A DNA stretch of 64,000 bases from an uncultured bacterium (GCA_964434115.1 CAYSSX010000011.1:3605-67604), one strand, 5' to 3'; shown: positions 19,462 through 49,479, counted from the stretch's first letter. The notes: generated from the letters alone by a model not told the origin. Numbers and translations are program-made.

Positions 19462-19475
19462 GGGAATTTTTAAAC

Positions 19476-27836: not shown

Positions 27837-29581
27837 TTTTCGTTTACCGATCTCTGAAGCAGGCTTTCCAGCTGGCCGGCAAGAGGCAGTGCCCCCAGCT
27901 GAAATAAAATTTCCTGTTCGGTTTTTGCCGAGGTCCTGTTGCCGGATTTTAGAAGTGCTACCGCGCGATTGAAATGAGACGAAGGGTTGAAGGGATCGTT
28001 GTCGACGGCCTTATTGTAAAAAAGAAGAGCCTCTCGGAGCTTTCCCTGAAGGAGGCAGACATTCGCAAGATTGTTGTAGCTGTGCCCAAGGAGATGCCTG
28101 TCGTCCGGAATCTTTTTGGCGTAGCCAATGGCCCGCTTGAAGCTCTTGGAAGCCATCAGGAAATTTTTTTGCTCACCGTACATCGCTCCGAGGTTGTTGT
28201 AAGTGGCAGCGTTTCGAGGGCTCAACTCAACGGCCCTTAAGCAGTAGGGAATGGCCCGCGAAAAGTTTTTCTCATCTTTCCAGGCGAGGCACAGCCGCGC
28301 ATAGCCGCGAGCCTTGGAAGGGGATTTTTGGATCACATCTTCCCAGATTGTAATTTCGCTTTTCCAGGCTTTATTTCTTTCGTAAGTCAAAACAGAAAAA
28401 ATAAGGACAATGACCCCTAAAGCGGCCAGCGCTTTTTGGGGTCCGCGCATAACCGCAAAAAAAGAATAAGTCAAAACCGCCGCAAAGCCTGCCATGGGAA
28501 GATAGAGACGGTGTTCAAAAATAACATCCCGGATAGGTAAAATTCCCGACTCCACACTCAATGAAACAAAGAACCAGAGCACGCCCCAAAAGAGCAGGCG
28601 GTGCCGCGAACGAATGCAAAAAGCGGCGGCCAGGATGGCGAGGATCAAACCCGCGGAGAGCAGGGGCGGCGCAGAAAAAAAGCTGTGAGAGACCGGGAAA
28701 TCGTAATCCAGGTTTTGGTTTGCAGGAAAAATAAGCAGACGAAGGTAGGTTCTGATGACGCTGAGCTGCGTTAAGAAGTAATCGGCTCCAAAGGCGGTGG
28801 GGTAACCGTAGTAAAAATGAGGACGGAGATAAAAGCCCAGTTTTCCCGAGGCTGCAACCGCGGCGGGGATCAGAAGAATCGCGGCGGCAAAAGGCACGAG
28901 ACCCAGGAGGCGCTTCTTCCGGGGGGTAGAGCCATCAAAGAAAAGCCATTCAGCGAGCAGGATCATCACGGGAAGCGTTGCCGAGATTTCTTTACTGAAG
29001 AGGGCCAACACCATGGCGAAAAGAGACAGAGCATAAAAAAGGCGGCGGCCGGAAAACCGGAAAGTAAGGTAGGAAACCACGCTTAAAAGATAGAGAAAGG
29101 TGGCTAGAACCGCAAACCGCTGCCAGATGTAAGTCACCGCTTGAGTTTGAATCGGATGACATAGAAATACCAGAGAAGCAGCCCAAGCTGCCCAAGCCCC
29201 TGAATTTTCAGGAATGCAGCCGCGCGCGCGCGGAGACGCTGAGAGAAGCTGAAACATTCGAAAAACCAGCAGCGAGGCGCCGACATGCAGCAAAAGATTC
29301 GTGAGGTGATAGCCCGCGACCGAAAGGCCGTGGATGCGAAAATTAAAGGCGAAAGTCAGAAAAGTGAAACAGCGGGTTACATTGTCACCTTCACAAGATT
29401 TGAAAAGCGGGTACGGGGGACGTAAAAAAGGATTGTCCCGGATGGAGCCGATACCGTCAAAGTGAAACCCCGAGTGGAAAGTGTTGGAATAAATTAAGAA
29501 ACCCAAAAAGAAGTTTAGAAAAAGGAGGCCTAAAGGAAAAAGGTGCTTCTGACGGACGTCCCGGGAAAGGCCTTTAGACAT
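27833..29581 (-). CDS. Polytopic membrane protein with C-terminal TPR repeats (DUF1736/PMT_2, TMTC-like GT-C glycosyltransferase family)
   Basis: 582 aa. About 10 predicted TM helices N-terminally, including a HLTNLLLH motif. The C-terminal ~200 aa contain TPR-like repeats (YNNLGAMYGEQKNF..., YNNLANVCLLQGKLREALLFYNKAVDNDPFN). Confidence 0.65.
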   Translation of the reverse strand: MSKGLSRDVRQKHLFPLGLLFLNFFLGFLIYSNTFHSGFHFDGIGSIRDNPFLRPPYPLFKSCEGDNVTRCFTFLTFAFNFRIHGLSVAGYHLTNLLLHVGASLLVFRMFQLLSASPRARGCIPENSGAWAAWAASLVFLCHPIQTQAVTYIWQRFAVLATFLYLLSVVSYLTFRFSGRRLFYALSLFAMVLALFSKEISATLPVMILLAEWLFFDGSTPRKKRLLGLVPFAAAILLIPAAVAASGKLGFYLRPHFYYGYPTAFGADYFLTQLSVIRTYLRLLIFPANQNLDYDFPVSHSFFSAPPLLSAGLILAILAAAFCIRSRHRLLFWGVLWFFVSLSVESGILPIRDVIFEHRLYLPMAGFAAVLTYSFFAVMRGPQKALAALGVIVLIFSVLTYERNKAWKSEITIWEDVIQKSPSKARGYARLCLAWKDEKNFSRAIPYCLRAVELSPRNAATYNNLGAMYGEQKNFLMASKSFKRAIGYAKKIPDDRHLLGHSYNNLANVCLLQGKLREALLFYNKAVDNDPFNPSSHFNRAVALLKSGNRTSAKTEQEILFQLGALPLAGQLESLLQRSVNEK

Positions 29582-30830
29582 AATGGATCTCAGGCAAAGG
29601 TTCGCGGGTTATTTTTTGATTTTTCCACTGAAGGGGAATGGCCAAGAGACCTTTTTTGACCGGAGAATTCTCCAGGGAAGCATGGAAAGCCTCTTGATCG
29701 TGGAGATTGAAAACAAGAGTTCGGGCACTTCCTTTTTCGATCCCCTGGAGACGGAGAAGGCGGGCGCGTATTTGATAAGTTCCAGAATTTAAAATCCCAG
29801 CCGGAAAAAAAACAGAGCAAAGAAAATGGCCGTGCCCGTCCGGGAGCATGCCTTGCGGAAGGGTCTCCCGATAGAGCAGAAGACCGTCAATGCGCTCCAA
29901 ACATATTTCCAGCGAAACGTTTAGGGAAGCATCGCGGACAAAGTACTCGATCTGAACCTGCATGGGCGAGCTCTTCGCGGGGCGGGGCTGATGATCCAGC
30001 AGGCGGAGCGCCGTGATCTGCGCGGGCGCGTCTGCGGTGAACGGAAAGGTTTCAAAAGTCCTTTCTGTGGAAAGGGAGTCGAGGTATGTGCGAATGACAT
30101 TTTTGATGGGGCCATAGGCCGCCAGACGGCCGCCATCCATCAAAAGCCCCTGCCCGCAATAACGCACAAGAGCGTTGATGTCATGGCTTACCAGCATCAC
30201 AGTTCTGCCTTCTCCCGTGATGAAATCCATCTGAGCCCGGCATTTTTTTTGAAACCCAAGATCGCCTACGGCGAAGACCTCGTCGACTAAAAGAATTTCG
30301 GATTCAAGATGCGACGCGATCGAAAAGGCCAGGCGCAGGTACATGCCCCAGGAATAGCGTTTGACGGGAGTGTTTATAAACATTTCCAGCTCTGAAAAAG
30401 CAATAATGGCCTCGAGCTTTCGCCGGATTTCCCGGCGCTTCATGCCGAGGATCGCCCCATGGAGATAAATATTGTCTAACCCTGAGAGCTCCGGATGAAA
30501 GCCCGCGCCGATCTCAAGAAGGCTCGCGGTGCGGCCGCGTAAAACAACCCTGCCTGAAGTCGGTTCCGTGATGCCGGATAAAATTCTGAGCAATGTTGAT
30601 TTCCCAGCCCCGTTATTTCCCAGGACGCCAACAACTTCTCCTCGTGAAATTTCAAAGGAAACATCCCGCAGCGCTTGCAAGGAGTCGAGGTGTGACGGGC
30701 CGACTCCAGCCTCCTTCCGCTTGAAAAAGTTTTTTGCCAGCCAGTTTCGGCCCGAGCGGATGAGGCCCGCTTCAGAGGGGAGGCGGTAAGCCTTGGATAG
30801 ATTTTCAGCCTGAATCATCGCCGCGGGCAT
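29574..30830 (-). CDS. wzt: Polysaccharide ABC exporter ATP-binding protein (Wzt/TagH-like), with a C-terminal glycan-binding domain
   Basis: Walker A GVLGNNGAGKST, a signature/LSGG-like region, and a ~170-aa C-terminal extension typical of Wzt. Confidence 0.8.
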   Translation of the reverse strand: MPAAMIQAENLSKAYRLPSEAGLIRSGRNWLAKNFFKRKEAGVGPSHLDSLQALRDVSFEISRGEVVGVLGNNGAGKSTLLRILSGITEPTSGRVVLRGRTASLLEIGAGFHPELSGLDNIYLHGAILGMKRREIRRKLEAIIAFSELEMFINTPVKRYSWGMYLRLAFSIASHLESEILLVDEVFAVGDLGFQKKCRAQMDFITGEGRTVMLVSHDINALVRYCGQGLLMDGGRLAAYGPIKNVIRTYLDSLSTERTFETFPFTADAPAQITALRLLDHQPRPAKSSPMQVQIEYFVRDASLNVSLEICLERIDGLLLYRETLPQGMLPDGHGHFLCSVFFPAGILNSGTYQIRARLLRLQGIEKGSARTLVFNLHDQEAFHASLENSPVKKGLLAIPLQWKNQKITREPLPEIHYV

Positions 30831-31691
30831 CTAGAGCGTATCCACGAAAGTTCGCTCGGCGCGTGAAAAAACCAGCGCTCCCGAAATCAGCACCGCGAAG
30901 GAGACCGCGACAGAGAGTGTCACATCCCATGAGGAAATACGGCCGGTCCCCAAGAAAAGAACACGCGAAAATTCGATAAGCGTGGCCATGGGGTTGAGCC
31001 CCGCCCAAGGGCGAAAATTTTCAGGGATGGATGAAACGGGATAAATCACAGGGGTTATAAACATCAAAAGATTAACAGCAAAATCGAGAATGTGCTGCAG
31101 ATCCCGGTGCTTCACCGTAAGCGAAGCCACCCACAAGCCCAGTCCGAGCGTGGTACTCATGAGTAAAAACAGGCAGGGAGGCAGGAGGAAAAAAAGCCGG
31201 AGATCAGGGGGCGCCGGCTCCCAGCCCCTGAAAAAAAAGAAGAAGGCATAAAAAGAACCAAAGACAAAGCCTTGGGCCGCGAGTGTAACAAGATTCGCAA
31301 GCAAAAGAGAAAGAGGAATTGTGAGCCGGGGAAAGTAGACCTTTCCTAAGAGCGAAGCGTTAGAAGTTAGAGAGCCGGCAATCCGCGTAAAGGTGTAGGA
31401 AAAATAACGCCAAAAGAGAAGACCGCAAAGATAGAACAAAATAGCCGGAGTGCCGCCCGTGGAAACCCCCAGAGTTTTGTTGAAAATAATGACAAAAACA
31501 GCTGCCGCCAAGACCGGCTGAACAAGAAACCACAAAGGCCCGAGAAGCGTCTGATGAAAAGCCGTGTGCAAATACCTGCGATAAAGGAAGTAAACAAGGT
31601 CTTTGTACTCAAACAATTCACGCCACTTGAGATTTAAGAGCCCCCGAGTAGGTTCGATAATACGCAGGTAACCGCCCTCACGATTCCGCAT
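30831..31691 (-). CDS. wzm: ABC-2 type polysaccharide exporter permease (Wzm-like). The start is probably the internal ATG at 31691, not the track's 31901.
   Basis: Six-TM ABC-2 profile beginning after MRNREGGYLRIIEPTRG. The longer track ORF would overlap the upstream gene by more than 200 nt. Confidence 0.7.
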   Translation of the reverse strand: MRNREGGYLRIIEPTRGLLNLKWRELFEYKDLVYFLYRRYLHTAFHQTLLGPLWFLVQPVLAAAVFVIIFNKTLGVSTGGTPAILFYLCGLLFWRYFSYTFTRIAGSLTSNASLLGKVYFPRLTIPLSLLLANLVTLAAQGFVFGSFYAFFFFFRGWEPAPPDLRLFFLLPPCLFLLMSTTLGLGLWVASLTVKHRDLQHILDFAVNLLMFITPVIYPVSSIPENFRPWAGLNPMATLIEFSRVLFLGTGRISSWDVTLSVAVSFAVLISGALVFSRAERTFVDTL

Positions 31692-32475
31692 GACAAAGAG
31701 TCCTTTCGGAAGGCTGGGCCAAGACACGATCCCTGACGAGTTCAAGCTGGGATATTTTGTTTTCAATCCCGCAGGTCCAGTTGGCATGATGTAAGACGAT
31801 GTCGCCGGGAACCCCCAGACGGTCTCCCTTGGCCCAAATTTTTTCAGTCTGGATTCCAGGACTGAAAAAGCTGGGCGGGAAATAGCGCAGACGAACTCCA
31901 TAAGAACTTCCTAGATGAGGCTTTAAAAAGAGCAAAAGAGACCGCATCGGCCCTTGCAGCCAAACAAAGCGGCTCAAAAATGAAACGATCTTCCAAAGAA
32001 TGCGAAGGGGCGCACGCGCTCTCCTAAACCACAGATCGTTGAGAGCTTCTTGGTCGTGTTTTTCAGGAAAAAGGGCCATTTCCATCTGTACGTCCCGCCA
32101 CAAGCGGATCGTTTTGGCATTGGACCGGCAGGCGAAGAATCCGGTTCCCAAGGTCCCCTGGGGAGAATCTTGCAAAACAGCAAGGTCGCAGCGGGCCATG
32201 AGGGTTAGAACCCAAGGCTCTGTTTTTCTGAAAAATTGGATATCGACATCTGAAAAGAGGAAAACTTCCCCCGGATTTTCGCGGAGGGCCCGAAGGATAA
32301 GAGAAACCTTTTTATGAATAGCACGATTCCAAGAGGAGTCCTTGTAATTTCCAGTCCCCGCTGAGGGGTCTGAATCCAGTTGAAGGAGGTAAGGGTCTTT
32401 GAGGCTGGGGAGAAACCATTGCTCGGCCAATGGCCGGTGAGAGACAGAACAAAGACAATAGAGCTTCAGCGGCAT
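31678..32475 (-). CDS. Putative nucleotide-diphospho-sugar transferase (Nucleotid_trans-like, DxD)
   Basis: 265 aa. The FLFSDVDIQFF DxD-type motif, and its placement inside the glycan cluster. Confidence 0.4.
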   Translation of the reverse strand: MPLKLYCLCSVSHRPLAEQWFLPSLKDPYLLQLDSDPSAGTGNYKDSSWNRAIHKKVSLILRALRENPGEVFLFSDVDIQFFRKTEPWVLTLMARCDLAVLQDSPQGTLGTGFFACRSNAKTIRLWRDVQMEMALFPEKHDQEALNDLWFRRARAPLRILWKIVSFLSRFVWLQGPMRSLLLFLKPHLGSSYGVRLRYFPPSFFSPGIQTEKIWAKGDRLGVPGDIVLHHANWTCGIENKISQLELVRDRVLAQPSERTLCHAES

Positions 32476-33547: not shown

Positions 33548-34507
33548 ATGGAAAATTTGATACCCTGGATTGTTTTTAATCTTTTCGTTTTACTGATGCT
33601 GGCCCTTGATTTGGGAGTTTTTCATAAAAAAAATCATGTCATAAACTTCAAAGAAGCCTTAGCTTGGAGCGGGGTGTGGATCGGCCTCGCGCTCGCCTTT
33701 AATCTGGGGATTTATTTTTGGAAGGGCCCTCAAAGCGGGCTGGAATTTTTGACCGGCTATCTGATCGAAAAGGCATTAAGCGTTGATAATATCTTTGTTT
33801 TCATCATGATCTTTGCTTATTTCAAAGTCCCTGCCCTCTATCAGCACAAGGTTCTCTTTTGGGGAATCCTGGGCGCCCTGGTCATGCGAGCCCTTTTTAT
33901 AGCCGCGGGGATCACTCTTTTAAAGCAATTCCATGGGCTTATTTATATCTTCGGGGCATTTCTAATCTTTACGGGGATCAAGATGGCTCTGAAAAAAGAT
34001 GAGGAAATCCACCCCGAAAACAACCCGTTCATTAAACTGTGCAAAAAAATCCTTCCGACAACCCATGAGTACGACGGGGGGAATTTTTTTACTAAAATCT
34101 CGGGCAGGTTTTATGCAACGCCGCTTTTTTTGGCGCTCGTTCTCGTTGAATTGACCGATGTCGTTTTTGCGGTTGATTCTATACCGGCTATTCTTGCGGT
34201 CACAGAAGACCCTTTCATTGTTTACACGTCAAACGTTTTTGCCATTCTGGGCATGCGGTCGCTCTACTTTGCGGTCTCGGGAAGCATGAGCAAATTTCAC
34301 TTCTTGCACTATGGTTTAGCAGCGATCCTTGTTTTTGTGGGCTCCAAAATGATGCTGGCAGAGTTCTATAAAGTCCCGATAGGCTTATCGCTTGCCATGA
34401 TAGCGTCCGCGCTTCTTTGCTCTGTTGGGGCCTCTAAAATTTGGCCCCAAAAAAAGGAGGAAGAAAATCTTTCAGGAGAGTCTAAAAAGGATTCTTGTGG
34501 AATTTAA
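33548..34507 (+). CDS. TerC-family integral membrane protein (Mn/metal exporter family)
   Basis: 319 aa. LSVDNIFVFIMIF and a second DSIPAILAV repeat are characteristic of the TerC family. Confidence 0.8.
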   Translation: MENLIPWIVFNLFVLLMLALDLGVFHKKNHVINFKEALAWSGVWIGLALAFNLGIYFWKGPQSGLEFLTGYLIEKALSVDNIFVFIMIFAYFKVPALYQHKVLFWGILGALVMRALFIAAGITLLKQFHGLIYIFGAFLIFTGIKMALKKDEEIHPENNPFIKLCKKILPTTHEYDGGNFFTKISGRFYATPLFLALVLVELTDVVFAVDSIPAILAVTEDPFIVYTSNVFAILGMRSLYFAVSGSMSKFHFLHYGLAAILVFVGSKMMLAEFYKVPIGLSLAMIASALLCSVGASKIWPQKKEEENLSGESKKDSCGI

Positions 34508-34562
34508 GTGCTGTGAGGAATATAAATAGTCATCGGGAGCTAAAACCCGACAGGAGAGAGCA

Positions 34563-35159
34563 ATGAAAAAAAATATTTTAATCGGACTCGGTGTTGTGAT
34601 TGCTCTGGCGCTGATTATGGCGTCGAGTTTCGGAGGTATCTATAACCGCCTTGTAACATCCGAGGAAGGCGTGAAAAGCGCCTGGGCCCAGGTTGAGAAC
34701 GTGTATCAACGCAGACTGGATCTTATTCCCAACCTTGTTGAAACCGTCAAGGGATACGCGGCACACGAAAAAGAAACCCTCTCCCGGGTGGTCGAAGCGC
34801 GAGCCAGCATTTCACAGATGAAAATTTCGTCGGACGTTGTTAACGATCCCGCGGCACTTGAAAAATTTCAGGCTTCGCAAGGGACCCTTTCTTCAGCGCT
34901 CAGCCGGCTGCTTGTAGTGGCTGAACAGTATCCTGACCTGAAGGCAAGCCAGAATTTTTTAGCCCTGCAGAGCCAGCTCGAAGGCACCGAGAATAGAATC
35001 ACGGTCGAGCGTATGAGATTCAATGAAGCGGCGCAAAAATTCAACACCTTACGCAGGACCTTTCCCGCTGCGTTTTTGGCCAACATGATGGGGTTTAAAG
35101 AGAAAGCCTACTTTCAAGCTGACGCTGCGGCCGCAAAAGCCCCCAGTGTTCAGTTTTAA
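34563..35159 (+). CDS. LemA-family protein
   Basis: 198 aa with an N-terminal TM segment followed by SAWAQVENVYQRRLDLIPNLVETVKGYAAHEKETL, the LemA signature. Confidence 0.8.
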   Translation: MKKNILIGLGVVIALALIMASSFGGIYNRLVTSEEGVKSAWAQVENVYQRRLDLIPNLVETVKGYAAHEKETLSRVVEARASISQMKISSDVVNDPAALEKFQASQGTLSSALSRLLVVAEQYPDLKASQNFLALQSQLEGTENRITVERMRFNEAAQKFNTLRRTFPAAFLANMMGFKEKAYFQADAAAAKAPSVQF

Positions 35160-35162
35160 GCC

Positions 35163-35960
35163 ATGACGAAGGCTCTAAAAGCCGGAATCGTATTTGTTTT
35201 TTTGGGCCTCATGCCCGCCGCATCCGCCGCCCTTAAAATACCGGCCCAGCCTGATGGGTATATCACGGATCAAGCGGGCATGATGACGCCTGCGCTTCGG
35301 TCCCGCCTTGAGGCACGGCTGCAGGATTTTGAAAAGCAGACCACCAGCCAAATTTTGATAGCCACATTTCAAACCCTTGATGGGGAATCACTCGAAGATT
35401 TTTCAATACGCGTTGCCGAAACCTGGAAAGCCGGTCAGCAAGGGAAGGACAACGGGGTTCTTTTGCTTATCTTTCGAGACGATCGAAAAATCAGAATCGA
35501 AGTGGGCTATGGCCTCGAAGGGGTTTTAACGGACGCCCTCTCTGCGGCAATCATTCGAGACATCATTACGCCACAGTTCAAGACCGGGAATTTTGACCAA
35601 GGCATCGAAGACGGCGCGGATGCCCTCATGAAAACCATTCGCGGGGAATATACAGCGCCGCGCCCCGAGCCGCCCAGCGAGACCGACGGACTCGTCCACG
35701 CTGTCCTCATGGTGCTTTTGGCTGCCGGCGTGCTGGATGTGATTCGCTATCTATCTTATTGGTCAGGGCATCGCAGCTACAGCGGCCGGTACGGTGTCTG
35801 GGAATGGTTTTTTCTTTTTTCTATTCTTTGGTTTATTCTTAGACTTCTTTTGAGCAGCCGGGGCGGTTACTCCGGCCGAAGCGGCGGCTGGAACAGCGGC
35901 GGCGGTTACTCCGGCGGCGGGGGACGTTTTGGCGGCGGCGGTGCGAGCGGAGGGTGGTGA
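35163..35960 (+). CDS. TPM-domain (YgcG-like) protein with a C-terminal Gly-rich tail
   Basis: A signal/TM segment, then the TPM core GVLLLIFRDDRKIRIEVGYGLEGVLTDALSAAIIRDIITPQFKTGNFDQGI, a second TM segment, and a GGYSGRSGGWNSGGGYSGGGGRFGGGG tail. The 3-nt gap after LemA fits the classic LemA-TPM pair. Confidence 0.75.
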   Translation: MTKALKAGIVFVFLGLMPAASAALKIPAQPDGYITDQAGMMTPALRSRLEARLQDFEKQTTSQILIATFQTLDGESLEDFSIRVAETWKAGQQGKDNGVLLLIFRDDRKIRIEVGYGLEGVLTDALSAAIIRDIITPQFKTGNFDQGIEDGADALMKTIRGEYTAPRPEPPSETDGLVHAVLMVLLAAGVLDVIRYLSYWSGHRSYSGRYGVWEWFFLFSILWFILRLLLSSRGGYSGRSGGWNSGGGYSGGGGRFGGGGASGGW

Positions 35961-36424
35961 TGAAAAAAATGGCATTTATGAGATTTCCTATCCCGGCGCT
36001 CTTTTTCTCTCGAAAAGAAAAAGAGAGGATTCAAAGCGCTATTCGAGAGGTTGAAAAAGAGACCTCTGCCGAGATCCGCGTCCATCTTGAACGCCGGCAA
36101 AAAGGGCGTGATACTTTGGAACAGGCCCGCGAGTCTTTTGAAAGAATCGGAATGACGGCGACGCAAGAAAAGAACGGGATCCTTATTTTTTTATGCCCCG
36201 AAACTCGACGCTTTGCCGTTTTGGGTGACTCGGGCATTCATGAAAAGGTTTCCCAAGACTTTTGGGAAGAAATCAGCCGCGCGATGAAACCTCATTTTTT
36301 ACAGGATCGATTTGCCGACGGTATTGTCGAGGCTGTGGAAAAAATCGGAAGCCGAGTGAAGAAATTTTTTCCAAGAAAAACGGGCGACCGGAACGAACTT
36401 CCGGATAATATTTCCCACGGTTGA
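35954..36424 (+). CDS. Second TPM-domain protein (cytoplasmic-type)
   Basis: 156 aa. ERIQSAIREVEKETSAEIRVHL...NGILIFLCPETRRFAVLGDSGIHEKV...FADGIVEAVEKIG is the TPM pattern. Confidence 0.65.
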   Translation: MVMKKMAFMRFPIPALFFSRKEKERIQSAIREVEKETSAEIRVHLERRQKGRDTLEQARESFERIGMTATQEKNGILIFLCPETRRFAVLGDSGIHEKVSQDFWEEISRAMKPHFLQDRFADGIVEAVEKIGSRVKKFFPRKTGDRNELPDNISHG

Positions 36425-37461: not shown

Positions 37462-38022
37462 TTAACGGGGTTTTTTCGGGAACACGCGAACAGCGATGTC
37501 CTTCGGAGCCTTTGCTAAAAAGCAGATTGTTTTTTTTAAGAAACCTGGCAGCCGGACCCTGCCGTTGTTCAATTCCCGAAGCCTTTTAAAAATAACATGA
37601 AGAGTCCATTCCGCGAGCGATAAAAAGCCAATCAGGCGCGACGAAAGCCTTGATCCGGCCGACGAAAAATTCACGGACTTTTTATCTCTTCGCGCCCCCT
37701 GCACAATGCCCACAAGGCTCTCCTTAAAAAATGGAGGATCCGCGACCCAGGCGTTGTCCGGCTTTGCAATCATTCCGAACTTTTCGCCGATGGGCTTTCG
37801 ATACAGAAAACGGTGAACCCAGCGATGCCCGCGCGCCGTATAGACAACAATGTCTCCCAGCCGAAGGTCCTGTGCTGAGACAGGCCGGACAAGAATTAAA
37901 TCTTCATCTTGGAGCACAGGGAACATGCATTGCCCCTTATAAATGAACCGCACAAGACCCTCGCGGGTTTCGACAGTATTAATAAGCCGCAGAGCTTCTT
38001 CCTTAATGGGGGTATCAGCCAT
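37462..38022 (-). CDS. Soluble S24/S26-type (signal-peptidase-I / LexA-like) peptidase homologue, in which the Ser/Lys dyad positions carry Cys and His
   Basis: 186 aa. KGQCMFPVLQDEDLILV aligns with SPase-I box B (G-D-S-M-x-P-T-L..GD.L.V). LGDIVVY aligns with box C (RGDIVV). RWVHRFLYRKPIGE aligns with box D (V-K-R-vIGlPGD). So S becomes C and K becomes H. There is no N-terminal TM anchor. Confidence 0.55.
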   Translation of the reverse strand: MADTPIKEEALRLINTVETREGLVRFIYKGQCMFPVLQDEDLILVRPVSAQDLRLGDIVVYTARGHRWVHRFLYRKPIGEKFGMIAKPDNAWVADPPFFKESLVGIVQGARRDKKSVNFSSAGSRLSSRLIGFLSLAEWTLHVIFKRLRELNNGRVRLPGFLKKTICFLAKAPKDIAVRVFPKKPR

Positions 38023-38087: not shown

Positions 38088-38438
38088 TTGAACCCTGTGG
38101 CCCGAGGGAAACGGCTGTTACCAAACCGGAACAATCCGTTGACCCCCGAAATGTGCAGAGCTAAACTGGTCTTAATGCAAATCCTTGTCGATAAAGAAGT
38201 TGTTTGCTGGAGTAAGCTGGGAGACGAAACGCTCCTGCTGAACCTTGATACAGGCTATTATTACACGCTCGATGAGCTGGGCGGCTTGATCTGGGAGATG
38301 CTGATCGAGCAGCATGATCAGGAAAAGATCGTAGAACGGATTGTCTCCGAGTACGAAGCCGAAAGAAAGTCTGTGGAAAGTGACTTGAAAACTCTTCTGG
38401 AAGAACTTCAGAGAGAGGGTATGATTGTCATTAAGTAG
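38088..38438 (+). CDS. PqqD-family protein (RiPP recognition element-like). Start uncertain among TTG 38088, GTG 38097 and ATG 38175.
   Basis: The C-terminal 88 aa, MQILVDKEVVCWSKLGDETLLLNLDTGYYYTLDELGGLIWEMLIEQHDQEKIVERIVSEYEAERKSVESDLKTLLEELQREGMIVIK, fit the PqqD/RRE pattern (..vL.N..TG.yy.LN..g..IWe.l..........l...Y.v......Dv..fl..L...GLi). It is paralogous to the gene at 48091. Confidence 0.8.
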   Translation: MNPVARGKRLLPNRNNPLTPEMCRAKLVLMQILVDKEVVCWSKLGDETLLLNLDTGYYYTLDELGGLIWEMLIEQHDQEKIVERIVSEYEAERKSVESDLKTLLEELQREGMIVIK

Positions 38439-38449
38439 GGAGGTCCGTT

Positions 38450-38563
38450 GTGGAAAACGCAGAGAAACAGGAAAAGCCCGAAAGCAATGGAAAGAAGAAG
38501 CTTTATAAGAAGCCGGCCATAAAAAAATATGAACGGCTCTATGAACCCGGAATCGGATCTTAA
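38450..38563 (+). CDS. Unannotated 37-aa basic peptide, a candidate precursor/substrate peptide of the adjacent modification system
   Basis: GTG at 38450, preceded by GGGAGG (38438-38443) with a 6-nt spacer. Translation: (M)ENAEKQEKPESNGKKKLYKKPAIKKYERLYEPGIGS, stop TAA at 38561-38563. It starts 12 nt after the PqqD stop. It is homologous to the peptide at 47852 through a shared Y-x-K-P-A-(I/L)-x-K motif. Confidence 0.6.
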   Translation: MENAEKQEKPESNGKKKLYKKPAIKKYERLYEPGIGS

Positions 38564-38598
38564 CACGCGCTTGAAAAACCCTCACTAATCCTGGGCTG

Positions 38599-40422
38599 AT
38601 GAAACCCTCTATGCCCTTCCCCCGCGTCAGTTGTATTGTTCCTGTCTTCAATGGAGAGAAGTATTTGTCCGAAACCATCGAAAGCATTCTTGGCCAAACC
38701 TACTCAAACATTGAAACTATCGTTATTGATGACGGCTCCACGGACGGCACCGCCGAAGTTTTAAAGCAGTACACTGGACGGGTCCGGGCGTTTAAACAAA
38801 ACCATTCAGGGCCTTCTGCGGCCCGGAATTTGGGCATTGAAAAATCATCGGGAGAACTCATCGCGTTTCTTGATGCGGACGATCTGTGGGCACCCGAAAA
38901 AATTCAGCAGCAAGTCGAACATCTTCAAGCTCACGCAGAACTTGATGTGTGTTTTACACAGGCCAGGAATTTTTGGATTCCCGAATTAGAGCATGAAAAA
39001 AAGAGGCTTGAGGAAGAAGGGCTCGTAAAATTTATCCACCCCTTTTTGGTCTGCACCTTCTTGGGCAGAAGAGAGATTTTTGACAAAGTCGGGATGTTTA
39101 AGCCGGAGCTTGTGATTGGCGAAGATAGTGATTTTTTTTGCCGGATGAAAGACGCGGGAATTCAAAGCGGTGTTATTTCGAAAAATTTAGTTTTCAGAAG
39201 ACTGCATGAGAGCAACCTCACCCGGAACATGTCGCTGTTCACCCGTGTGGAGCTTCAGCAGAGAGCCGCAGAGGCTCTGGGGAGGTATCGGCAAAAAGAA
39301 GCGGAGGCATCCTGCTCAGAGCAGCCCGGCAAGGCAGAAGGAAAGCCTTCGAGCCGGAAAGATGCCGATATTTTTTTTGAAGCTTTAAGCAAGGTCTATA
39401 CTCGCGCACGAAACAGCCGCGCCGGTGCAGCGGATTTTTATTATTCCATCGCCGGACATACCGTAAAACTTTGTTTTGCCGGGCCGGCACTTATTTCCCT
39501 GATGACCCCGGCACTTGAACATCTCCGAGTCAAGACACAGGAGCGCGCGGAGCTGACAATCGGCCTCTGTGATTTTGATTCTAATGACGTGGTAATGCCG
39601 GAGGTTCCTTGTACCTTTAAGGATTATACGGCGCGCCGGAAAACGACAGAATTTAATGATGATGAATACCTCCGGGCAGACTATCAAGAAAGAGCTCAAA
39701 AGCTCCACGTTCTCCACGCACAAAAAGACGAAGCCTTCTTTTTTGTAAAAAACAGCGCCTCCGTTCTCCAGGCTGATCAAGGCGCCCCGCTTGCCAAAAT
39801 TTTCCGCTGGTGGATGCGAAAAAAGGGGATCCAGCTTGTTCATGGCGGAGTTGTTGGAATGAATGGCACCGGAATTTTGCTGGCCGGAAAAGGGGGTTCG
39901 GGAAAATCGACTACAGCGCTCACCTGCCTGGCCGGAGGCATGGACTACCTAAGTGATGACTATTGCCTTGTCGAGTCCAAGCCGGTACCGGCCGCCTACA
40001 GTTTATATTGCAGCGGTAAAGTGCAGTCCAATAACCTTGACCTTGTGCCCGGGCTTTCGAAGTTAAGCAGTAAGGGCCGCCCGGATCAGGAGTCAGGGAA
40101 AACCCTTTTCTTTGTTCAGGAGCTGTTTCCTGAAAGAATAACCCGGCAACTTCTTCTTAAAGCGATTCTTATTCCCGTGATCGAAGCGCGCCCGCAAAGT
40201 GAACTTATAGGAGCATCGGCTGTCGCGGCGCTTCAGGCCTTGGCCCCGAGCACTCTGTTTCAGCTTCCCGGGTCAAAAAATAAGGACTTTTATGAGCTGG
40301 TTAAGATTGTAGAATCTCTTCCCTGTTATGTTTTCCGGGTCGGAAGCGACCCCGGGGAAGCAACGAGAATCATCCGCGAATTTTTAACCTCTCAAACGCC
40401 GGAAGCGAAGAACAAGGCTTAG
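38599..40422 (+). CDS. Bifunctional-looking protein: N-terminal GT2 glycosyltransferase fused to a C-terminal HPr-kinase-like P-loop kinase domain
   Basis: N-terminus: VSCIVPVFNGEKYLSETIESILGQTYSNIETIVIDDGSTDGT...LDADD (GT-A fold, DxD). C-terminus: LVHGGVVGMNGTGILLAGKGGSGKSTTALTCLAGGMDYLSDDYCLVE, which aligns with the HprK core (lHG..v...G.GvLi.G.SG.GKSe.AL.L...Gh.LvaDD). Confidence 0.7.
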   Translation: MKPSMPFPRVSCIVPVFNGEKYLSETIESILGQTYSNIETIVIDDGSTDGTAEVLKQYTGRVRAFKQNHSGPSAARNLGIEKSSGELIAFLDADDLWAPEKIQQQVEHLQAHAELDVCFTQARNFWIPELEHEKKRLEEEGLVKFIHPFLVCTFLGRREIFDKVGMFKPELVIGEDSDFFCRMKDAGIQSGVISKNLVFRRLHESNLTRNMSLFTRVELQQRAAEALGRYRQKEAEASCSEQPGKAEGKPSSRKDADIFFEALSKVYTRARNSRAGAADFYYSIAGHTVKLCFAGPALISLMTPALEHLRVKTQERAELTIGLCDFDSNDVVMPEVPCTFKDYTARRKTTEFNDDEYLRADYQERAQKLHVLHAQKDEAFFFVKNSASVLQADQGAPLAKIFRWWMRKKGIQLVHGGVVGMNGTGILLAGKGGSGKSTTALTCLAGGMDYLSDDYCLVESKPVPAAYSLYCSGKVQSNNLDLVPGLSKLSSKGRPDQESGKTLFFVQELFPERITRQLLLKAILIPVIEARPQSELIGASAVAALQALAPSTLFQLPGSKNKDFYELVKIVESLPCYVFRVGSDPGEATRIIREFLTSQTPEAKNKA

Positions 40423-40490: not shown

Positions 40491-41672
40491 ATGAACTCAG
40501 CAGATAAAAAAGAGCACTCTAAAGAAATACTGTTTATTCTCGAATGCCTTCAGTCGCTTATCCAAAACCGGGCGCCTGAGATAGACTCCCGGCGGATCAC
40601 CGGCCTCGACTGGAATCAGCTCCTCCGATTGGCCCGCGAGCAAAGGGTTCTGGGGCTTTTCGGGCATGTCCTCGAGAAGGGCGGGGCATTTCCTTTGGTT
40701 CCCGTGACGGTAAAAGAGGAAATCGAAAAAGGTGTTCATGAATACAACCAGGGCCTGCTGATCAAAAAGTGGCAATTTGGGTCCATTCACCGTTTATGCC
40801 GCGAGCAGAACCTCGAAATCATTCCTTATAAAGGCGCCGCCCTTGCGCTCACCGTTTTTAAAGACCTGCCTTTTCGCCGCATGAGCGATATTGATATTTT
40901 TATCCGTGAAAGCGATGCTGCGCGCATTTATCCGCTTTTTTTTAAGCAAGGCTTCGCAAGACTTGAAACGCCTTACCCTAACCGATGGCAGGCAGAGATT
41001 CTTCGGGGTGCTTATGCCGCCCCGTCAGGAAGAGAGTCCCTTTTTAAGCAAGGGTGGGACATTGATATTCATAGGCAAGCGAGATATCACATTGAAAAAG
41101 ATATCGTTTCGCTGGATATGCAGGACGTTTGGTCCAGAGCAAAGCCCAGGGCCACGGAGCTTGGAGAGGTCCTTTTTCTCGATGATATTGATCATACCCT
41201 GCTTTTGCTTTTTCACGCGATCGATCTTTTTGCCCCGCATTTCAGCCAGATTGTGGATACCGCCCTGCTGATGAAAAGCTCCGCGATTCGTAAAGAGGAT
41301 CTGATAGCAAGGCTCCCCGGAAACCTCGGCCCGGAGGCCAGTGCTTTTTTAGAAACCGCCAGCGATGCTATCGAAGAGTTTCTAGCGCCTCAGAAAAGGA
41401 GCGGAAATTTTTCAGAAGCAACGATCCGTTTTTTTGATTTGTTTTTTTACAAACGCAAGAGGACCTACGAAGAGCCGTTATCCAGCTCCGGCTGGAAGCG
41501 CCTTGCCAAAAGCCTAAAAGCCATACGGAGCGTTCGCGAGAAGGTGGTGTTTATCGCGGGATTTTTTGTGCCGGATCCAGAATACTACAAAAAGCAAGGC
41601 AAGAGCGGCCTCAGCAGTTACCTTCACCACTGGGGACAGCTGAGCTCGCGTATTTTGAAATCATTTAATTGA
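40491..41672 (+). CDS. Nucleotidyltransferase-family protein (PF14907-like 'uncharacterised nucleotidyltransferase')
   Basis: 393 aa. IPYKGAALALTVFKDLPFRRMSDIDIFI is the nucleotidyltransferase-fold G[SA]...D.D motif. This family is seen in lasso-peptide and other RiPP neighbourhoods. Confidence 0.55.
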   Translation: MNSADKKEHSKEILFILECLQSLIQNRAPEIDSRRITGLDWNQLLRLAREQRVLGLFGHVLEKGGAFPLVPVTVKEEIEKGVHEYNQGLLIKKWQFGSIHRLCREQNLEIIPYKGAALALTVFKDLPFRRMSDIDIFIRESDAARIYPLFFKQGFARLETPYPNRWQAEILRGAYAAPSGRESLFKQGWDIDIHRQARYHIEKDIVSLDMQDVWSRAKPRATELGEVLFLDDIDHTLLLLFHAIDLFAPHFSQIVDTALLMKSSAIRKEDLIARLPGNLGPEASAFLETASDAIEEFLAPQKRSGNFSEATIRFFDLFFYKRKRTYEEPLSSSGWKRLAKSLKAIRSVREKVVFIAGFFVPDPEYYKKQGKSGLSSYLHHWGQLSSRILKSFN

Positions 41673-41682
41673 GACCCGGTGG

Positions 41683-42624
41683 ATGATGCGTCAACAGCTG
41701 CATTTTTTGGATATTACAATTGAACTCACCGGGGCCGCCGATTCAAATTCGCGGACTCTGCTGAAAGAGCTTCAAGGGTATGGCTCAACAGCAATCCGCA
41801 AAGATGTCTCAGGAACACTGAGCATCAAAAAGGCCGCAAACTTCAGAATTCCTAAACAAGCCTGCCTGAAAGGCTTTTGGAGATCTTCGGGACTTCGGCA
41901 CTATGCCGAAACGACAACTCATTTTTGGGTTCAAGGAAAATCAGCGATTGTCAGTAATCTGCATACCCGCGGCGTTGAAATTCATTTGGGCGATAACCCT
42001 TCTGCCGAATTTATTGCCGCGGCTAGAAACGCGATCAAGTGGCTGATCATCAAGGCTGCGGAAAAATCAGGTTATGGATATGCCCATGCGGCAGCCGCTT
42101 ATTTCCGCGGGCGGAGTATTCTTCTGCCTGGAAATCCGGGCGCCGGAAAGTCCTCCTTTGTGATGCGCCTGATGAAAGCCGGAGCCGTGGTCCTTAACGA
42201 TGATGTAACCCTGATTCATCTGGGTTCTGGCCGTATGATCCCGCTGGCCCTGAACCTTCACGTTAAAGGGGATTTTTCTAAACGGTTCAATGTTTCGCCG
42301 CGCGAGCGCTGGGCATGGTTTCGCGATGAGGCGGTAAAAGAAGCCGAAAAGGTCAAAGGGGTGGATGTTATTTTATTTCCACAGGTATGGGCAGCGTCCG
42401 AGAGCCGTGTCAAAAAACTATCGCCCGAAGAAACGGAAATACGGCTGGATGGTATTTACCTGAAAGAGATGTCCTGGAACGCTTTTCCTGCTCCATCGCA
42501 AAGAATGAAATCAGCTCACCGGAAAATGATCAAGAATGCGGACAGCTATGTTTTTTACTGCGGAACACACGAAGCAAAAATCCAGAAGCGGCTGGAGAAT
42601 TTTTTGAAAAAATATGAAGAATAA
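41683..42624 (+). CDS. HPr-kinase-like (HprK-related) P-loop kinase
   Basis: YAHAAAAYFRGRSILLPGNPGAGKSSFVMRLMKAGAVVLNDDVTLI, i.e. P-loop followed by a DD motif as in the HprK C-terminal domain. Confidence 0.6.
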   Translation: MMRQQLHFLDITIELTGAADSNSRTLLKELQGYGSTAIRKDVSGTLSIKKAANFRIPKQACLKGFWRSSGLRHYAETTTHFWVQGKSAIVSNLHTRGVEIHLGDNPSAEFIAAARNAIKWLIIKAAEKSGYGYAHAAAAYFRGRSILLPGNPGAGKSSFVMRLMKAGAVVLNDDVTLIHLGSGRMIPLALNLHVKGDFSKRFNVSPRERWAWFRDEAVKEAEKVKGVDVILFPQVWAASESRVKKLSPEETEIRLDGIYLKEMSWNAFPAPSQRMKSAHRKMIKNADSYVFYCGTHEAKIQKRLENFLKKYEE

Positions 42625-43537
42625 TCAGCGTCCTTTTTTTGTTTTTCAAGGAAAGATGCGTGTTGAGGTCCTCTCAGACAGAGCTGCCGCCAGTCAGTTA
42701 AAACGGCACCAAGACGCCGGGCGGGAGGAGAGGACTTTGCTGGCCGGCCGCCTTAAAATCTATAAAGTGAGAAGGTTCACGCCGCTCAACCACCGGGCGC
42801 TGCGCGCTCACTGCAACGGTCAAACCCGCAGGGAAGAGTATGCAAAGTCCGGGACCCACACCTACTTGGCGCCCACTTTTCAAATCCGCCTCGACAAGCG
42901 GAAGAGAAGCTGCCGCGTCGAATACTTGAAATGGGACTCCCGCCTGCTTCATGAAGTCCGGCTCCTGATACGCTGGATTATGAAATCAGCGCATCTCGAT
43001 CAGGGGTGTGTTTATTTTCCGGGCATTCTGCTGGGCTCTGACGACGGTGGCGGGGTCGCTTTTACGGGGCAGCAGGAGTGTGGGATTTTGGATGCTTTGC
43101 CGCGCGTTTCAGCTTTTGGGAGGGGCCGGCCCGGCAGTTATGGTTTTATCATGAATCCGAAGTCAAAACAGATCACAGCGCTGCCTTTTCCGGGAGTCTG
43201 CAAATATGAGAGCTCCCGGGTCTATGCTGAGGCCTTGGAAAAAACAAAACAGAAGGAGGGGGAAAAGAGCCCCCGCTTCTCCAGGAGGATTGTTTTTGTC
43301 CAATCCTGGAACCGGCCGGACTCTCACCTGGGAAGTCTTTCCAGGCGTGAAGGAGTTCTAAAACTGGATGAGCTGAACCGGAGAGCTTACGAGTATTTTT
43401 TCCCCAGTCAAAGAGAGCGTCTTTTGGAGCGCTACCAAGGCATGCGGCAGCTCAGGTTTTTTCAGCTCAATCTCGGAACAGATTCCGTGAAAGCCGCAAC
43501 GCTGCTTTCACGCTTTCTGAGGGAAGGGAAAAAGTGA
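42614..43537 (+). CDS. Hypothetical protein
   Basis: 307-aa ORF translationally coupled to its neighbours (ATGA overlap). No motifs recognised. Confidence 0.4.
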   Translation: MKNNQRPFFVFQGKMRVEVLSDRAAASQLKRHQDAGREERTLLAGRLKIYKVRRFTPLNHRALRAHCNGQTRREEYAKSGTHTYLAPTFQIRLDKRKRSCRVEYLKWDSRLLHEVRLLIRWIMKSAHLDQGCVYFPGILLGSDDGGGVAFTGQQECGILDALPRVSAFGRGRPGSYGFIMNPKSKQITALPFPGVCKYESSRVYAEALEKTKQKEGEKSPRFSRRIVFVQSWNRPDSHLGSLSRREGVLKLDELNRRAYEYFFPSQRERLLERYQGMRQLRFFQLNLGTDSVKAATLLSRFLREGKK

Positions 43538-47851: not shown

Positions 47852-47998
47852 GTGGCAAAAAAAAAATCACAATCTCCCAAGCCTAAGACTAAGCTAGCAC
47901 CGCCGAAAGGCAGGCAAAAGAGAAAACCCTATCAAAAGCCTGCGCTTGAAAAACATAGCGAAGTTCAGTTGTGGGCGTTTGGGACCATGGGCGGGTGA
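47852..47998 (+). CDS. Unannotated 48-aa basic peptide, paralogue of the 38450 peptide and candidate precursor/substrate peptide
   Basis: GTG at 47852 with AAAGGA ~8 nt upstream. Translation: (M)AKKKSQSPKPKTKLAPPKGRQKRKPYQKPALEKHSEVQLWAFGTMGG, stop TGA at 47996-47998. RKPYQKPALEKHSEV aligns with KKLYKKPAIKKYERL of the first peptide at the protein level, but with different codons. Confidence 0.6.
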   Translation: MAKKKSQSPKPKTKLAPPKGRQKRKPYQKPALEKHSEVQLWAFGTMGG

Positions 47999-48090: not shown

Positions 48091-48375
48091 ATGTATAAGA
48101 TCGATCAAAAGGCCGTTGTCTGGAAAAAAACGGAATCCGAAGTGGTGCTCCTTAATCTAAGCACCGGACACTACTACACACTCAATGCGGCAGGCCTTGT
48201 GTTGTGGGACGGAGTTCTTAAAAAGCTTTCACCCGAGAAGATCGCTCGAAAACTGGAATCAGAGTTCGAGGTGGAATACAAAACCGCCTTTAAGGACACG
48301 CTCGAATGTCTTGATCAGCTGACCCAAGAGGGAATCATCACGAGACCGCCTACGCCTTCAACTAAAAAGAAATAA
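48091..48375 (+). CDS. PqqD-family protein (second RRE-like paralogue)
   Basis: 94 aa. MYKIDQKAVVWKKTESEVVLLNLSTGHYYTLNAAGLVLWDGVL...LESEFEVEYKTAFKDTLECLDQLTQEGII is the PqqD pattern. It starts 92 nt after the peptide gene. Confidence 0.8.
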   Translation: MYKIDQKAVVWKKTESEVVLLNLSTGHYYTLNAAGLVLWDGVLKKLSPEKIARKLESEFEVEYKTAFKDTLECLDQLTQEGIITRPPTPSTKKK

Positions 48376-48393: not shown

Positions 48394-49479
48394 ATGGTGG
48401 ATATCGTCATCGTCACTTATAATGCGCGGTCCGAGCTCATGAAATGCCTTGAGTCGGTCCGGCGTTATACGCCCGCTTCAATGTATAAATTATATGTTGT
48501 TAATAATGCCAGCAGCGACGGCACCCGCCAATATCTTGATCAAACCCGCCTTGTGAATGGTCAGTTTTTTCATCTTCCCCGGAACCTTGGGTTCTCGGGT
48601 GCAGCCAATTGGATAATCCCAAAGCTAAAATCGGCAGACGTAGTTTTTTTGGATGACGACGCCAGGGCCACCCCAGGCTGGCTTTCCGGGCTTGTCCGTT
48701 CGGTGAAAAAATCAAAAAAAACCGGCATGGTGGGCTGCAAGATTATTTATCCAGACAAAAAAATTTTTTCGTGCGAGGTTCGGTTTGGGCCGAGAAGAAT
48801 CTTATTTTTTAAAGACAGGGACCTGGGGCAGGCCGACTACGTTAAAGAAGTGGATGCTCTGGCGGGTGCCTGCTTTCTTGTCCCGCGAAAGATTTTGAAA
48901 AAAATAGGCCCCTTTGACGAAAGTTTCTTTCCCTGTCAGGGAGAAGACTGGGATTATTGTCTTCGAATCCGGAAAGCCGGCTATAAAATTATCTACAATG
49001 GCAAAGTAAGTATTATTCACAGTAATCTTTTCCGTGCGGGCGGCGAAAAAGTAAATAAAGAAAACAAAACCCGGTTCTATGAAAAGTGGAATGCGTATCT
49101 TGCTAAGCACTTTCCGCGCAAAGACAGCCACTTTGCAGACAGACTTATGTCGAAAGCGATTGCCGCGCTTGAGGCCGGCGACAGCGAAAGGGCCTTAAAG
49201 ATCTCCGGCAAGCTGGCCAAGAGCCGCCCCGAACTTGTTGAGCTGTGGGTTCCCGCGCTTGCCTATATAAGACTTCAAAATTTCAAGAAAGCCTTACCGA
49301 AGTTAAAAGAAATTATAAAAAGGAATCCGGATAACTATTCCGCACGGAGTTACCTTACCCTCTGTTTGCGCAGCCTGGGGATGAAGGGCGAAGCGGAGGC
49401 GTACACGGAGAAGATGCTTGCCTGCGTCACAAAGAACATAGACAAAAAAAGAGCCGCCGTTTCAAGGGGCAAACCTTGA
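48394..49479 (+). CDS. GT2 glycosyltransferase with a C-terminal TPR-like helical domain (SunS-like architecture)
   Basis: N-terminus: MVDIVIVTYNARSELMKCLESV...NNASSDGT...VVFLDDDA (GT-A fold, DxD). C-terminal ~110 aa have TPR-like repeats (AIAALEAGDSERALKISGKLAKSRPELVELW...LQNFKKALPKLKEIIKRNPDNYSARSYL). Confidence 0.7.
   Translation: MVDIVIVTYNARSELMKCLESVRRYTPASMYKLYVVNNASSDGTRQYLDQTRLVNGQFFHLPRNLGFSGAANWIIPKLKSADVVFLDDDARATPGWLSGLVRSVKKSKKTGMVGCKIIYPDKKIFSCEVRFGPRRILFFKDRDLGQADYVKEVDALAGACFLVPRKILKKIGPFDESFFPCQGEDWDYCLRIRKAGYKIIYNGKVSIIHSNLFRAGGEKVNKENKTRFYEKWNAYLAKHFPRKDSHFADRLMSKAIAALEAGDSERALKISGKLAKSRPELVELWVPALAYIRLQNFKKALPKLKEIIKRNPDNYSARSYLTLCLRSLGMKGEAEAYTEKMLACVTKNIDKKRAAVSRGKP

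Follow-up and report, generated by a model that had tools for sequence, protein, structure and literature searches.

The linear polyphosphorylated peptides (LPP), with their proteins LppA, LppB, LppK, LppS, LppN and LppD, have been described from Paenibacillus alginolyticus and other Bacillota (Popov et al., Nat Commun 2026, PMC13381572), to which they are described as restricted. Their clusters combine a SipW-like archaeal-type signal peptidase (LppS), a discrete RRE (LppB), an HprK-like kinase (LppK), an NTP transferase (LppN) and an MsbA-like pump (LppD), and sit within capsular polysaccharide loci, without a lasso cyclase (PMC13381572). The domain models used for these proteins are TIGR02228, PqqD, TIGR04249/04352/04355/00679, NTP_transf_5 and TIGR02203/4 (PMC13381572, Supplementary Data 2). 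The precursors are 35-200 aa long, have cores with variable C-termini and carry the motif YxxPxVLxHQxIxFETxxS, LppS cleaving after T(-1) (PMC13381572). LppK polyphosphorylates only Ser3 of LppA, its S3T and S3Y variants not being phosphorylated (PMC13381572).

In paeninodin-type lasso systems, the HprK homologues have been reported to target specifically the C-terminal Ser of the linear precursor, and the NTP-transferase PsmN to add hexoses to the phosphate on that Ser. Mycofactocin (MftA/MftB/MftE/MftF) and PQQ (PqqA/PqqD) are small molecules that derive from the last residues of a short, conserved, RRE-bound peptide, and the mycofactocin product is decorated by a GT2 enzyme.

In a stretch of 64,000 nucleotides from an uncultured bacterium (the window), we analysed a 37-codon ORF for which an earlier note had proposed the role of a precursor peptide belonging with the RRE-like (PqqD) gene beside it. 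The window GyrB shares 67-75% identity with proteins named Candidatus Omnitrophota, and the window also carries parAB, mnmG, yidC (long, of the diderm type), dnaA, dnaN, gyrB, gyrA and serS; this marks it as the region of the replication origin in an Omnitrophota chromosome. Between ~24.6 kb and 61.8 kb lies a glycan-biosynthesis region, with many glycosyltransferases (GT1, GT2 and GT4), ABC-2 exporters, methyltransferases and a sulfotransferase. Identical DNA is present in two public Logan assemblies, SRR16481187 and SRR16481186, and automatic gene calling on these reported the small ORF in one and omitted it in the other. In the literature searched, we found no paper tying Omnitrophota to RiPP precursors or describing the window peptide. 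With a probability of roughly 0.72, we propose that the small ORF is the substrate peptide gene of an LPP-like RiPP pathway of Candidatus Omnitrophota, working by the mechanism developed below.

The ORF occupies 38450..38563 on the plus strand, with a GTG start and a TAA stop at 38561-38563, on which the reading of the sequence, the ORF list, the translation and the base check all agree. Its product is (M)ENAEKQEKPESNGKKKLYKKPAIKKYERLYEPGIGS, of 37 aa, for which we found no match in Pfam, NCBIfam or the PDB. A Shine-Dalgarno sequence, GGGAGG (38438..38443, plus strand), lies 6 nt 5' of the GTG, the spacer TCCGTT filling 38444-38449, and the GGGAGG-N6-GTG arrangement and TAA first reported are thus exact to the base. 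The distances first reported had to be corrected. The PqqD gene ends with a TAG at 38436-38438, whose last base doubles as the first G of GGGAGG, and the gap between this stop and the small ORF is 11 nt instead of the 12 nt given. Nor does the ORF fill the space before the GT2-kinase gene exactly, as had been claimed: 35 nt are left up to the first ATG of that gene (38599), or 47 nt up to an alternative ATG at 38611, the start chosen by one gene caller.

Homologous peptides were collected mainly through the GT2-kinase protein, which has hundreds of homologues, a handful of them 40-54% identical over their full length. Homologues in this range gave 7 of the 8 lineages that we compared (window included). 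The DNA around six of these homologues was retrieved. Five contigs, which cover P0002, P0003, P0004, P0005, P0010 and P0012, reach far enough upstream, and each of these loci has a 37-39 aa ORF right after PqqD; on the sixth, that of P0006 (contig L094), there are only 169 nt upstream of the GT2-kinase gene, too few to show whether the peptide is present. The eighth lineage came from a phmmer search with the 37-aa peptide against 1.84 billion representative proteins, which added one member, P0248 (51 aa, E = 9.8e-4), its gene flanked by a PqqD gene and a signal-peptidase-like gene. In all, there are 11 homologous peptides, from ORFs of 37-51 aa, every one directly 3' of a PqqD gene, with two tandem copies in three lineages (L085, L093 and L096). 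When the motif [YF][DE]R[LI]YEPGφG[ST]-stop was turned into a degenerate DNA pattern (~43 bits) and run on the JGI metagenome collection, it found four stretches (5 matches), all of them true members with no apparent chance match, and all four directly follow the stop of an ORF that shares its C-terminus with the PqqD genes of L083/L085. A profile scan of genome contigs with the GT2-kinase alignment returned only relatives of ≤37% identity or GT2-only proteins, none with a YEPGxG[ST] peptide. Within the window itself, a weak tblastn match of the peptide (58873..58950, minus strand, E = 0.006 for the 64-kb database) lies inside a GT2 gene and was taken as a Lys-rich chance match.

The motif common to the 11 peptides is ...KKxYxKPxφKK[YFH][DE]R[LI]Y[EQ][PM]GφG[STY]-stop. 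Their last ~22 residues are conserved, and the N-terminal 15-32 residues differ in sequence, charge and length; in one homologue the N-terminus is acidic and 32 residues long. For the last 22 codons, pN ranges from 0.02 to 0.30 and pS from 0.21 to 1.0, with synonymous sites mostly saturated, and dN/dS is 0.04-0.31 where computable. Frame +0 is the only one open in all loci, and SD-like purine runs precede the ATG in most homologues. The region shows no sign of a conserved RNA structure: its fold z-score is -0.25, the minimum free energy not being below that of shuffled sequence, and an Rfam search over 37000-40000 gave no match at E ≤ 1 and none reaching a gathering score near the small ORF. 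Among the checks that the earlier note had named for its proposal were conservation of the frame, a Ka/Ks below 1 and the lack of any conserved RNA fold. The ORF passes each of these three, its frame and its 22 C-terminal residues being kept in 8 lineages, and the proposal of a precursor peptide for the PqqD gene is supported.

Some features would suit a chance ORF or something non-coding, be it a structured RNA or a spacer for the translational coupling of PqqD and GT2-kinase: the ORF is very short, one of two gene calls omits it, and no Pfam or NCBIfam family matches it. Such an element would not be expected to keep its protein at saturated synonymous sites, in the sole open frame everywhere, and to occur in tandem copies in some loci; with the unremarkable fold z-score and the lack of an Rfam match added, we find this explanation extremely improbable. 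The homologues, the purifying selection and the sole open frame make 38450..38563 a genuine coding gene for a precursor-like peptide, and within the reach of sequence evidence we regard its coding status as settled. Two antisense ORFs, 38172..38687 and 38408..38566, were discarded, their frames having stops in homologous loci.

The gene just upstream, 38088..38438 on the plus strand (gene callers put its start at 38097), encodes a discrete PqqD-family RRE (Pfam PqqD, 59.5 bits, above cut-off). Its best NCBIfam match is lasso_PqqD_Bac, below cut-off, and it scores 20.3 bits with TIGR04353 ('HPr-rel-A system'; cut-off 35) and 28.3 bits with TIGR04248 ('SynChlorMet cassette'; cut-off 100), both short of assignment. 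A profile of seven PqqD proteins of the family matched, in the PDB, TbiB1 (E = 1e-19), 9x90_B, TfuB1 and 9x8z_B, the sequence of the last being that of LppB as rebuilt from the primers in PMC13381572. The RRE is nearer in sequence to the lasso B1 proteins (TbiB1) than to LppB. It has an invariant D99 that aligns with LppB D70, and a D62 (N in PqqD2) that aligns with LppB N33; in LppB, D70 hydrogen-bonds the leader Tyr and N33 fixes the Pro kink (PMC13381572). The peptides carry a candidate ligand. Their YxxPx[ILVA] fits the RRE-binding motif [Y/W]xxPx[L/V/I/A/F/Y], and in the window peptide this motif is Y19-K-K-P22-A-I24. The leader-core layout suggested in the earlier note holds in outline, with a refinement: the leader is recognised by YxxPxφ and not by the Lys-rich N-terminus, which is variable. 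The RRE is a candidate binder of YxxPxφ: it would take up Y19-K-K-P22-A-I24 as an added beta-strand, as lasso B1 and LppB do, and would thereby make the conserved C-terminal part of the peptide, KKYERLYEPGIGS, accessible to the enzymes of the neighbouring genes.

The same data raise the question of a lasso-peptide precursor. The RRE is nearest to lasso B1 proteins and lasso_PqqD models, YxxPxφ is the lasso leader motif, and paeninodin-like clusters typically include genes for a kinase, a nucleotidyltransferase and a sulfotransferase. We took a lasso system to need a cyclase, a B2 protease and a core of ≥~14 residues, with an N-terminal Gly/Ala/Ser/Cys and an Asp/Glu at 7-9, and this is not what the locus holds. 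Neither an Asn_synthase/TIGR01536 (Asn-synthetase-like) cyclase nor a Transglut_core3 B2 protease was found in the large window ORFs or in the gene lists of the related loci, and the window peptide has only 13 residues after the RRE motif, roughly what a lasso leader would still need to be complete, and could not accommodate a macrolactam ring with its tail. Because of the missing cyclase and B2 protease and of these 13 residues, we exclude a lasso precursor, leaving it a vanishingly small probability.

The likely site of modification follows from a comparison with LppA, which we rebuilt from the mutagenesis primers (Supplementary Data 3, PMC13381572) as MEENTKREQKLYARPMVLSQQPVRFET followed by AQSWNKGKGN. 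In a Tyr-anchored alignment of LppA (KLYARPMVLSQQPVRFETAQS) with the window peptide (KLYKKPAIKKYERLYEPGIGS), the two share K, L, Y, P and the final S and have similar residues at V/I, Q/E and V/L, KLYARPMVLSQQPVRFET and the adjoining AQS of LppA pairing with KLYKKPAIKKYERLYEPG and IGS of the window peptide. All 11 peptides stop exactly at Y+18, which is the position of LppA Ser3; the last residue is Thr in six and Tyr in one, and the window peptide ends with Ser37. Of the LPP precursor motif, the window peptide has the Y, the P, the hydrophobic residues at +5/+11 and the S/T at +18, and lacks the L at +6, the FET at +13..+15 and a core beyond +18. The C-terminal Ser/Thr itself is the putative acceptor, on this alignment, and modification of Tyr is less likely than that of the terminal Ser/Thr. 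As the precursor ends at the acceptor, the functional core may amount to one to three residues; by the LppA register it may possibly be just the last three, φ-G-S/T, and a three-residue core would be unprecedented for the LPP family.

Downstream of the peptide gene, 38599..40422 (plus strand) encodes a fusion protein of 607 aa with an N-terminal GT2 and a C-terminal HprK/ScmC-like kinase domain, as judged from Pfam, NCBIfam and an alignment with HPrK/P. The GT2 part matches Pfam Glycos_transf_2 with 127.6 bits. Residues 405-461 give weak matches to Hpr_kinase_C, TIGR04355, TIGR04352 and TIGR00679, and the precomputed assignment is PF27840 (ScmC). An alignment of the kinase core with L. casei HPrK/P spans HG...GxSGxGKS...DD, and H415, G430, G435, K436, S437, T438 and D454 are invariant in 17 homologues. 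From these features the protein is a candidate kinase for the terminal Ser/Thr and a candidate glycosyltransferase: its HprK/ScmC-like domain would phosphorylate the hydroxyl of Ser37 (of Thr in several homologues), possibly repeatedly. The fusion of the kinase to a GT2 argues for phosphorylation and glycosylation on the same substrate.

The next gene, 40491..41672 (plus strand), encodes an LppN/PsmN-like protein of the NTP_transf_5 nucleotidyltransferase fold (PF14907, 104.6 bits, above cut-off), and it likewise adjoins in L085, L093 and L097. It is a candidate enzyme for adding sugar to phosphate, and the fused GT2, the NTP_transf_5 protein or both would add one or more sugars to the phosphate or to the residue. 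There follow, on the same strand, a second, stand-alone HprK-related kinase-like protein (41683..42624; TIGR04352 HprK_rel_A, E = 4.8e-10, below cut-off), with the P-loop GNPGAGKSS, and a protein without family assignment that continues the operon-like run (42614..43537; no Pfam or NCBIfam match), whose membership of the system is uncertain; a GT8-like gene also lies near the small ORF. The NCBIfam matches of the RRE, the protease and the kinase are all below the curated cut-offs.

The GT2 domain allows another chemistry on the same substrate, in which it would glycosylate the terminal Ser, Thr or Tyr directly, in the manner of a glycocin or O-glycopeptide, the HprK-like domains serving for sugar phosphorylation, as phosphorylases or for non-catalytic binding. 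The peptides may end in Ser, Thr or, once, Tyr, whereas LppK is strict for Ser, which implies either a different kinase specificity or a different modification; moreover, a GT2 is joined to a kinase-like domain in hundreds of homologues, and the domain has a weak match to the SunS family of peptide S-glycosyltransferases (E = 3.8e-6). Its best matches, however, are glycosyltransferases of polysaccharides and not of peptides, the HG, P-loop and DD of the kinase are invariant, and the alignment of Y+18 with the LppA phospho-Ser, together with the preference of the lasso kinases for a C-terminal Ser, fits phosphorylation. On balance, we regard direct glycosylation as unlikely and keep to the LPP-like pathway.

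The LPP-like pathway also needs a leader peptidase, for which a candidate lies on the other side of the RRE gene. The minus-strand gene 37462..38022, divergent from the PqqD gene and 65 nt apart from it, encodes a 186-aa archaeal/eukaryotic-type signal-peptidase-I-like protease, with Peptidase_S24 as its Pfam match and TIGR02228 (sigpep_I_arch, E = 4.3e-10, below the curated cut-off) as its best NCBIfam match. A profile of six members of the protease family matches human SEC11A (E = 2.5e-8). In this alignment, an invariant Cys32 falls on the catalytic Ser56 of SEC11A, VHRF on His96 and KxDN..D on TKGDNN..DD, and a Cys32-His70-Asp95 triad thus replaces Ser-His-Asp. The spacing of 32/70/95 compares with S29/H68/D93 in LppS, whose residues we read from the primers (GTS29MYPF, AH68RF and HD93E). 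Because of the SEC11A alignment and this spacing, we call the protease LppS-like but Cys-using. Its gene is present in 7 of the 8 peptide-bearing lineages, the contig of the remaining one (L093) being too short to tell, and in L095, L096 and L097 it lies on the same strand, directly 3' of the peptide gene. The module of protease, RRE, peptide and GT2-kinase thus recurs in related lineages. As a distant deltaproteobacterial relative (L004) keeps the Ser (GHSMAPTL), the swap from Ser to Cys is clade-specific.

This Cys protease would remove the leader, cutting after Gly34 if the LppA register applies, and the released product would be a phospho-glycosylated φ-Gly-Ser/Thr. The cleavage site is uncertain, since the residues on which LppS depends are not conserved in peptides of the window type: F, E and T at -3, -2 and -1 and L at -10 are replaced by E, P/M, G and K. 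We infer the binding, the phosphorylation, the glycosylation, this cleavage site and the biological role of the product alike from the comparisons above.

What becomes of the product is touched by the pattern of conservation. The 22 C-terminal residues are near-invariant although the enzymes are only 40-54% identical, which resembles a cofactor or scaffold peptide (PqqA, MftA) more than a variable core, and is typical of cofactor-like RiPPs. The peptide might accordingly be a disposable scaffold or primer, of which the last one to three residues enter a small phospho-glycosylated molecule or prime a glycan before the protease releases it, by the logic seen in PQQ, mycofactocin and the pearlins. 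The precursor ending at its acceptor, the position of the locus in a large glycan region with ABC-2 (Wzm/Wzt-like) exporters and the matches of the GT2 to MftF-type models, below cut-off, all agree with this. But neither a radical SAM enzyme nor any other that cross-links is encoded beside the peptide, no LPP product is available for comparison, and the idea overlaps, as a special case, with the LPP-like substrate peptide; as a separate explanation, we hold it to be quite improbable. One version is doubtful but conceivable: an invariant 37-aa scaffold on which the phosphorylated Ser/Thr, or φ-Gly-Ser/Thr, would anchor a glycan built by the GT2 and the surrounding glycosyltransferases, the Cys protease releasing a tiny product. 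If true, the scaffold would represent a peptide-primed route to a phosphoglycan or a cofactor-like molecule, and a hint at the end product of LPP systems.

Our preferred reading, an LPP-like substrate peptide, can be set against each of the known systems. Like the mycofactocin and PQQ systems, the locus has a short peptide (~30-40 aa) whose C-terminus is invariant, together with a discrete PqqD-family RRE and a dedicated peptidase. It differs from them in having no radical SAM maturase beside the peptide and in its predicted chemistry, phosphorylation and glycosylation instead of cross-linking, and no homology of the window peptide to MftA or PqqA was detected. With the paeninodin and pseudomycoidin systems (PadeK/ThcoK, PsmK/PsmN), it has in common an HprK-like kinase, an NTP-transferase fold and the same type of RRE and leader motif, but the window has neither a macrolactam cyclase nor a B2 cysteine protease, its leader protease is of another fold and its peptide is too short for a lasso.

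We also observed, in GTDB genomes of many phyla, tail-fused PqqD proteins beside GT2/HprK-like fusions, for which no described family was found. Like the window locus, these have a PqqD domain, a [YFW]xxPxφxx[YF]xD[ML] segment and a neighbouring HprK-like/GT2 protein. Unlike in the window, the PqqD protein itself (140-200 aa) bears the motif segment as its C-terminal tail, with no separate gene for it, LLLLDPIHEVDExGWP or LLALDPPMPG is conserved, and a signal-peptidase-like gene is usually absent.

For LPP, four of the five core domains are matched by window proteins (TIGR02228, PqqD, HprK-like and NTP_transf_5), the MsbA type being the one missing: among the annotated window ORFs there is no such exporter (TIGR02203/02204), only ABC-2-type ones (29574..31901 and 53958..55657). 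The discrete RRE keeps the Asp for the leader Tyr, the leader has YxxPxφ after K-L and a hydroxyl residue at Y+18, there are one to three precursor genes per cluster, and the locus likewise lies in a polysaccharide region without a cyclase. There are also differences. Besides the altered cleavage determinants, the precursor ends at the acceptor, without the variable core of LPP, and the acceptor is Ser or Thr (once Tyr), where LppK is strict for Ser. The kinase is fused to a GT2, a fusion not described for LPP, and there are extra HprK-like paralogues; the nucleophile of the protease is Cys in place of the Ser of LppS, the RRE is nearer to lasso B1 than to LppB, and the host belongs to the Omnitrophota.

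The locus thus presents the core logic of LPP (RRE, HprK-like kinase, NTP_transf_5 protein and signal-peptidase-like protease) in an uncultivated phylum and in stripped-down form, and a 37-codon gene, below size cut-offs and missed by one of two gene calls, is the proposed key substrate of a multi-gene pathway. Its short precursor and its enzyme fusion would be informative for the end product of LPP. The window system is of a known kind, that of LPP, and not categorically new, yet it is a clearly distinct variant, new in its Omnitrophota host, its precursor ending at the acceptor, its kinase-GT2 fusion and its Cys-type protease of the SPase-I fold.

The window holds a second module, paralogous to that of protease, RRE (RiPP recognition element, PqqD family) and peptide. 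It opens with a 48-codon ORF (47852..47998, +), which has a GTG start preceded by AAGGA and encodes VAKKKSQSPKPKTKLAPPKGRQKRKPYQKPALEKHSEVQLWAFGTMGG. The second PqqD gene (48091..48375, +) lies 92 nt downstream and is followed by the gene for a GT2-TPR protein (48394..51517, +), and then by those for a sulfotransferase and a further HprK-like protein; none of the genes adjoining this module is signal-peptidase-like. The product of the 48-codon ORF carries a YxKPAL motif, as does the first peptide. Counting from the Tyr of this RRE-binding motif (Y+n), it has the His at Y+8 of the consensus of the linear polyphosphorylated peptides (LPP) of Bacillota (PMC13381572), and a Thr at Y+18, followed by MGG.

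The more distant loci with GT2 and HprK-like genes (L006-L037, L046 and L099) encode a PqqD protein of 140-200 aa (for example L009 3472-3903, L014 2388-3029, L018 2519-3007 and L099 7568-7984). These loci come from many phyla, including Cyanobacteria, Acidobacteriota, Chloroflexota, Chlamydiae, Planctomycetota and Alphaproteobacteria. An Ala/Pro/Ser-rich linker leads to a tail of the form [YFW]xxPxφxx[YF]xDMx[DE]LLLLDPIHEVDExGWP, or its variant ...LLALDPPMPG..., and such a protein resembles an RRE that has a leader-like ligand of its own attached. None of the NCBIfam models covers this tail, and we found no published description of it.

Two long antisense ORFs, of 171 aa (38172..38687, -) and 52 aa (38408..38566, -), overlap the first PqqD and peptide genes. 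We rejected both as genes: stops break the antisense frames in the homologous loci, and the ORFs thus appear to be by-products of the codon composition of the sense strand. Among related lineages with a homologous peptide beside the PqqD gene, some loci carry a second peptide copy in tandem that looks degenerate or divergent. In L096 (2381-2500) this copy has an in-frame TAA after MSEK, within an A-rich run; it could be a pseudogene, or the TAA could stem from a homopolymer error in the assembly. The second copy of L093 (825-941) ends in Tyr and shows K-to-E, Y-to-H and E-to-Q changes in its conserved part.

Between the GT2/Nucleotid_trans/TPR genes and the protease-RRE-peptide module of the window sits a TerC-LemA-TPM-TPM block (33548..36424). 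In L085 and L086 the protease gene comes immediately next to the GT2/Nucleotid_trans/TPR genes, so this block seems to have been inserted into a conserved gene order; L095 and L096 also have LemA and an M48 peptidase gene close to the module. The far end of the glycan region (57785..61822, -) carries the gene for a B12-binding radical SAM protein (59446..61059, -), flanked by one GT2 gene and two SAM-methyltransferase genes; we saw no link between this protein and the peptide. Positions 983..20732 are the neighbourhood of the chromosomal origin, with genes for a GH94 phosphorylase and a sugar-binding protein, parB, parA, mnmG, yidC, dnaA, dnaN, gyrB, gyrA, serS and two tRNA-Ser genes. Judged by its sequence, GyrB (67-75 % identity to named members; best match 94 %) places the genome in Candidatus Omnitrophota.

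The signal-peptidase-I-fold protease of the clade is encoded at 37462..38022 (-) in the window and, in related loci, at L083 3886-4437, L085 3569-4147, L086 3769-4380, L095 4449-5000, L096 2522-3082 and L097 5484-5909. The protein begins with an amphipathic helix, not with a membrane anchor, and the His and Asp are kept. The position of the catalytic Ser is held by an invariant Cys (motif G-x-C-M-x-P-x-L), whereas the Ser is still present in a distant relative (L004), and SEC11A, SipW and the LPP protease LppS all have a catalytic Ser at this position.
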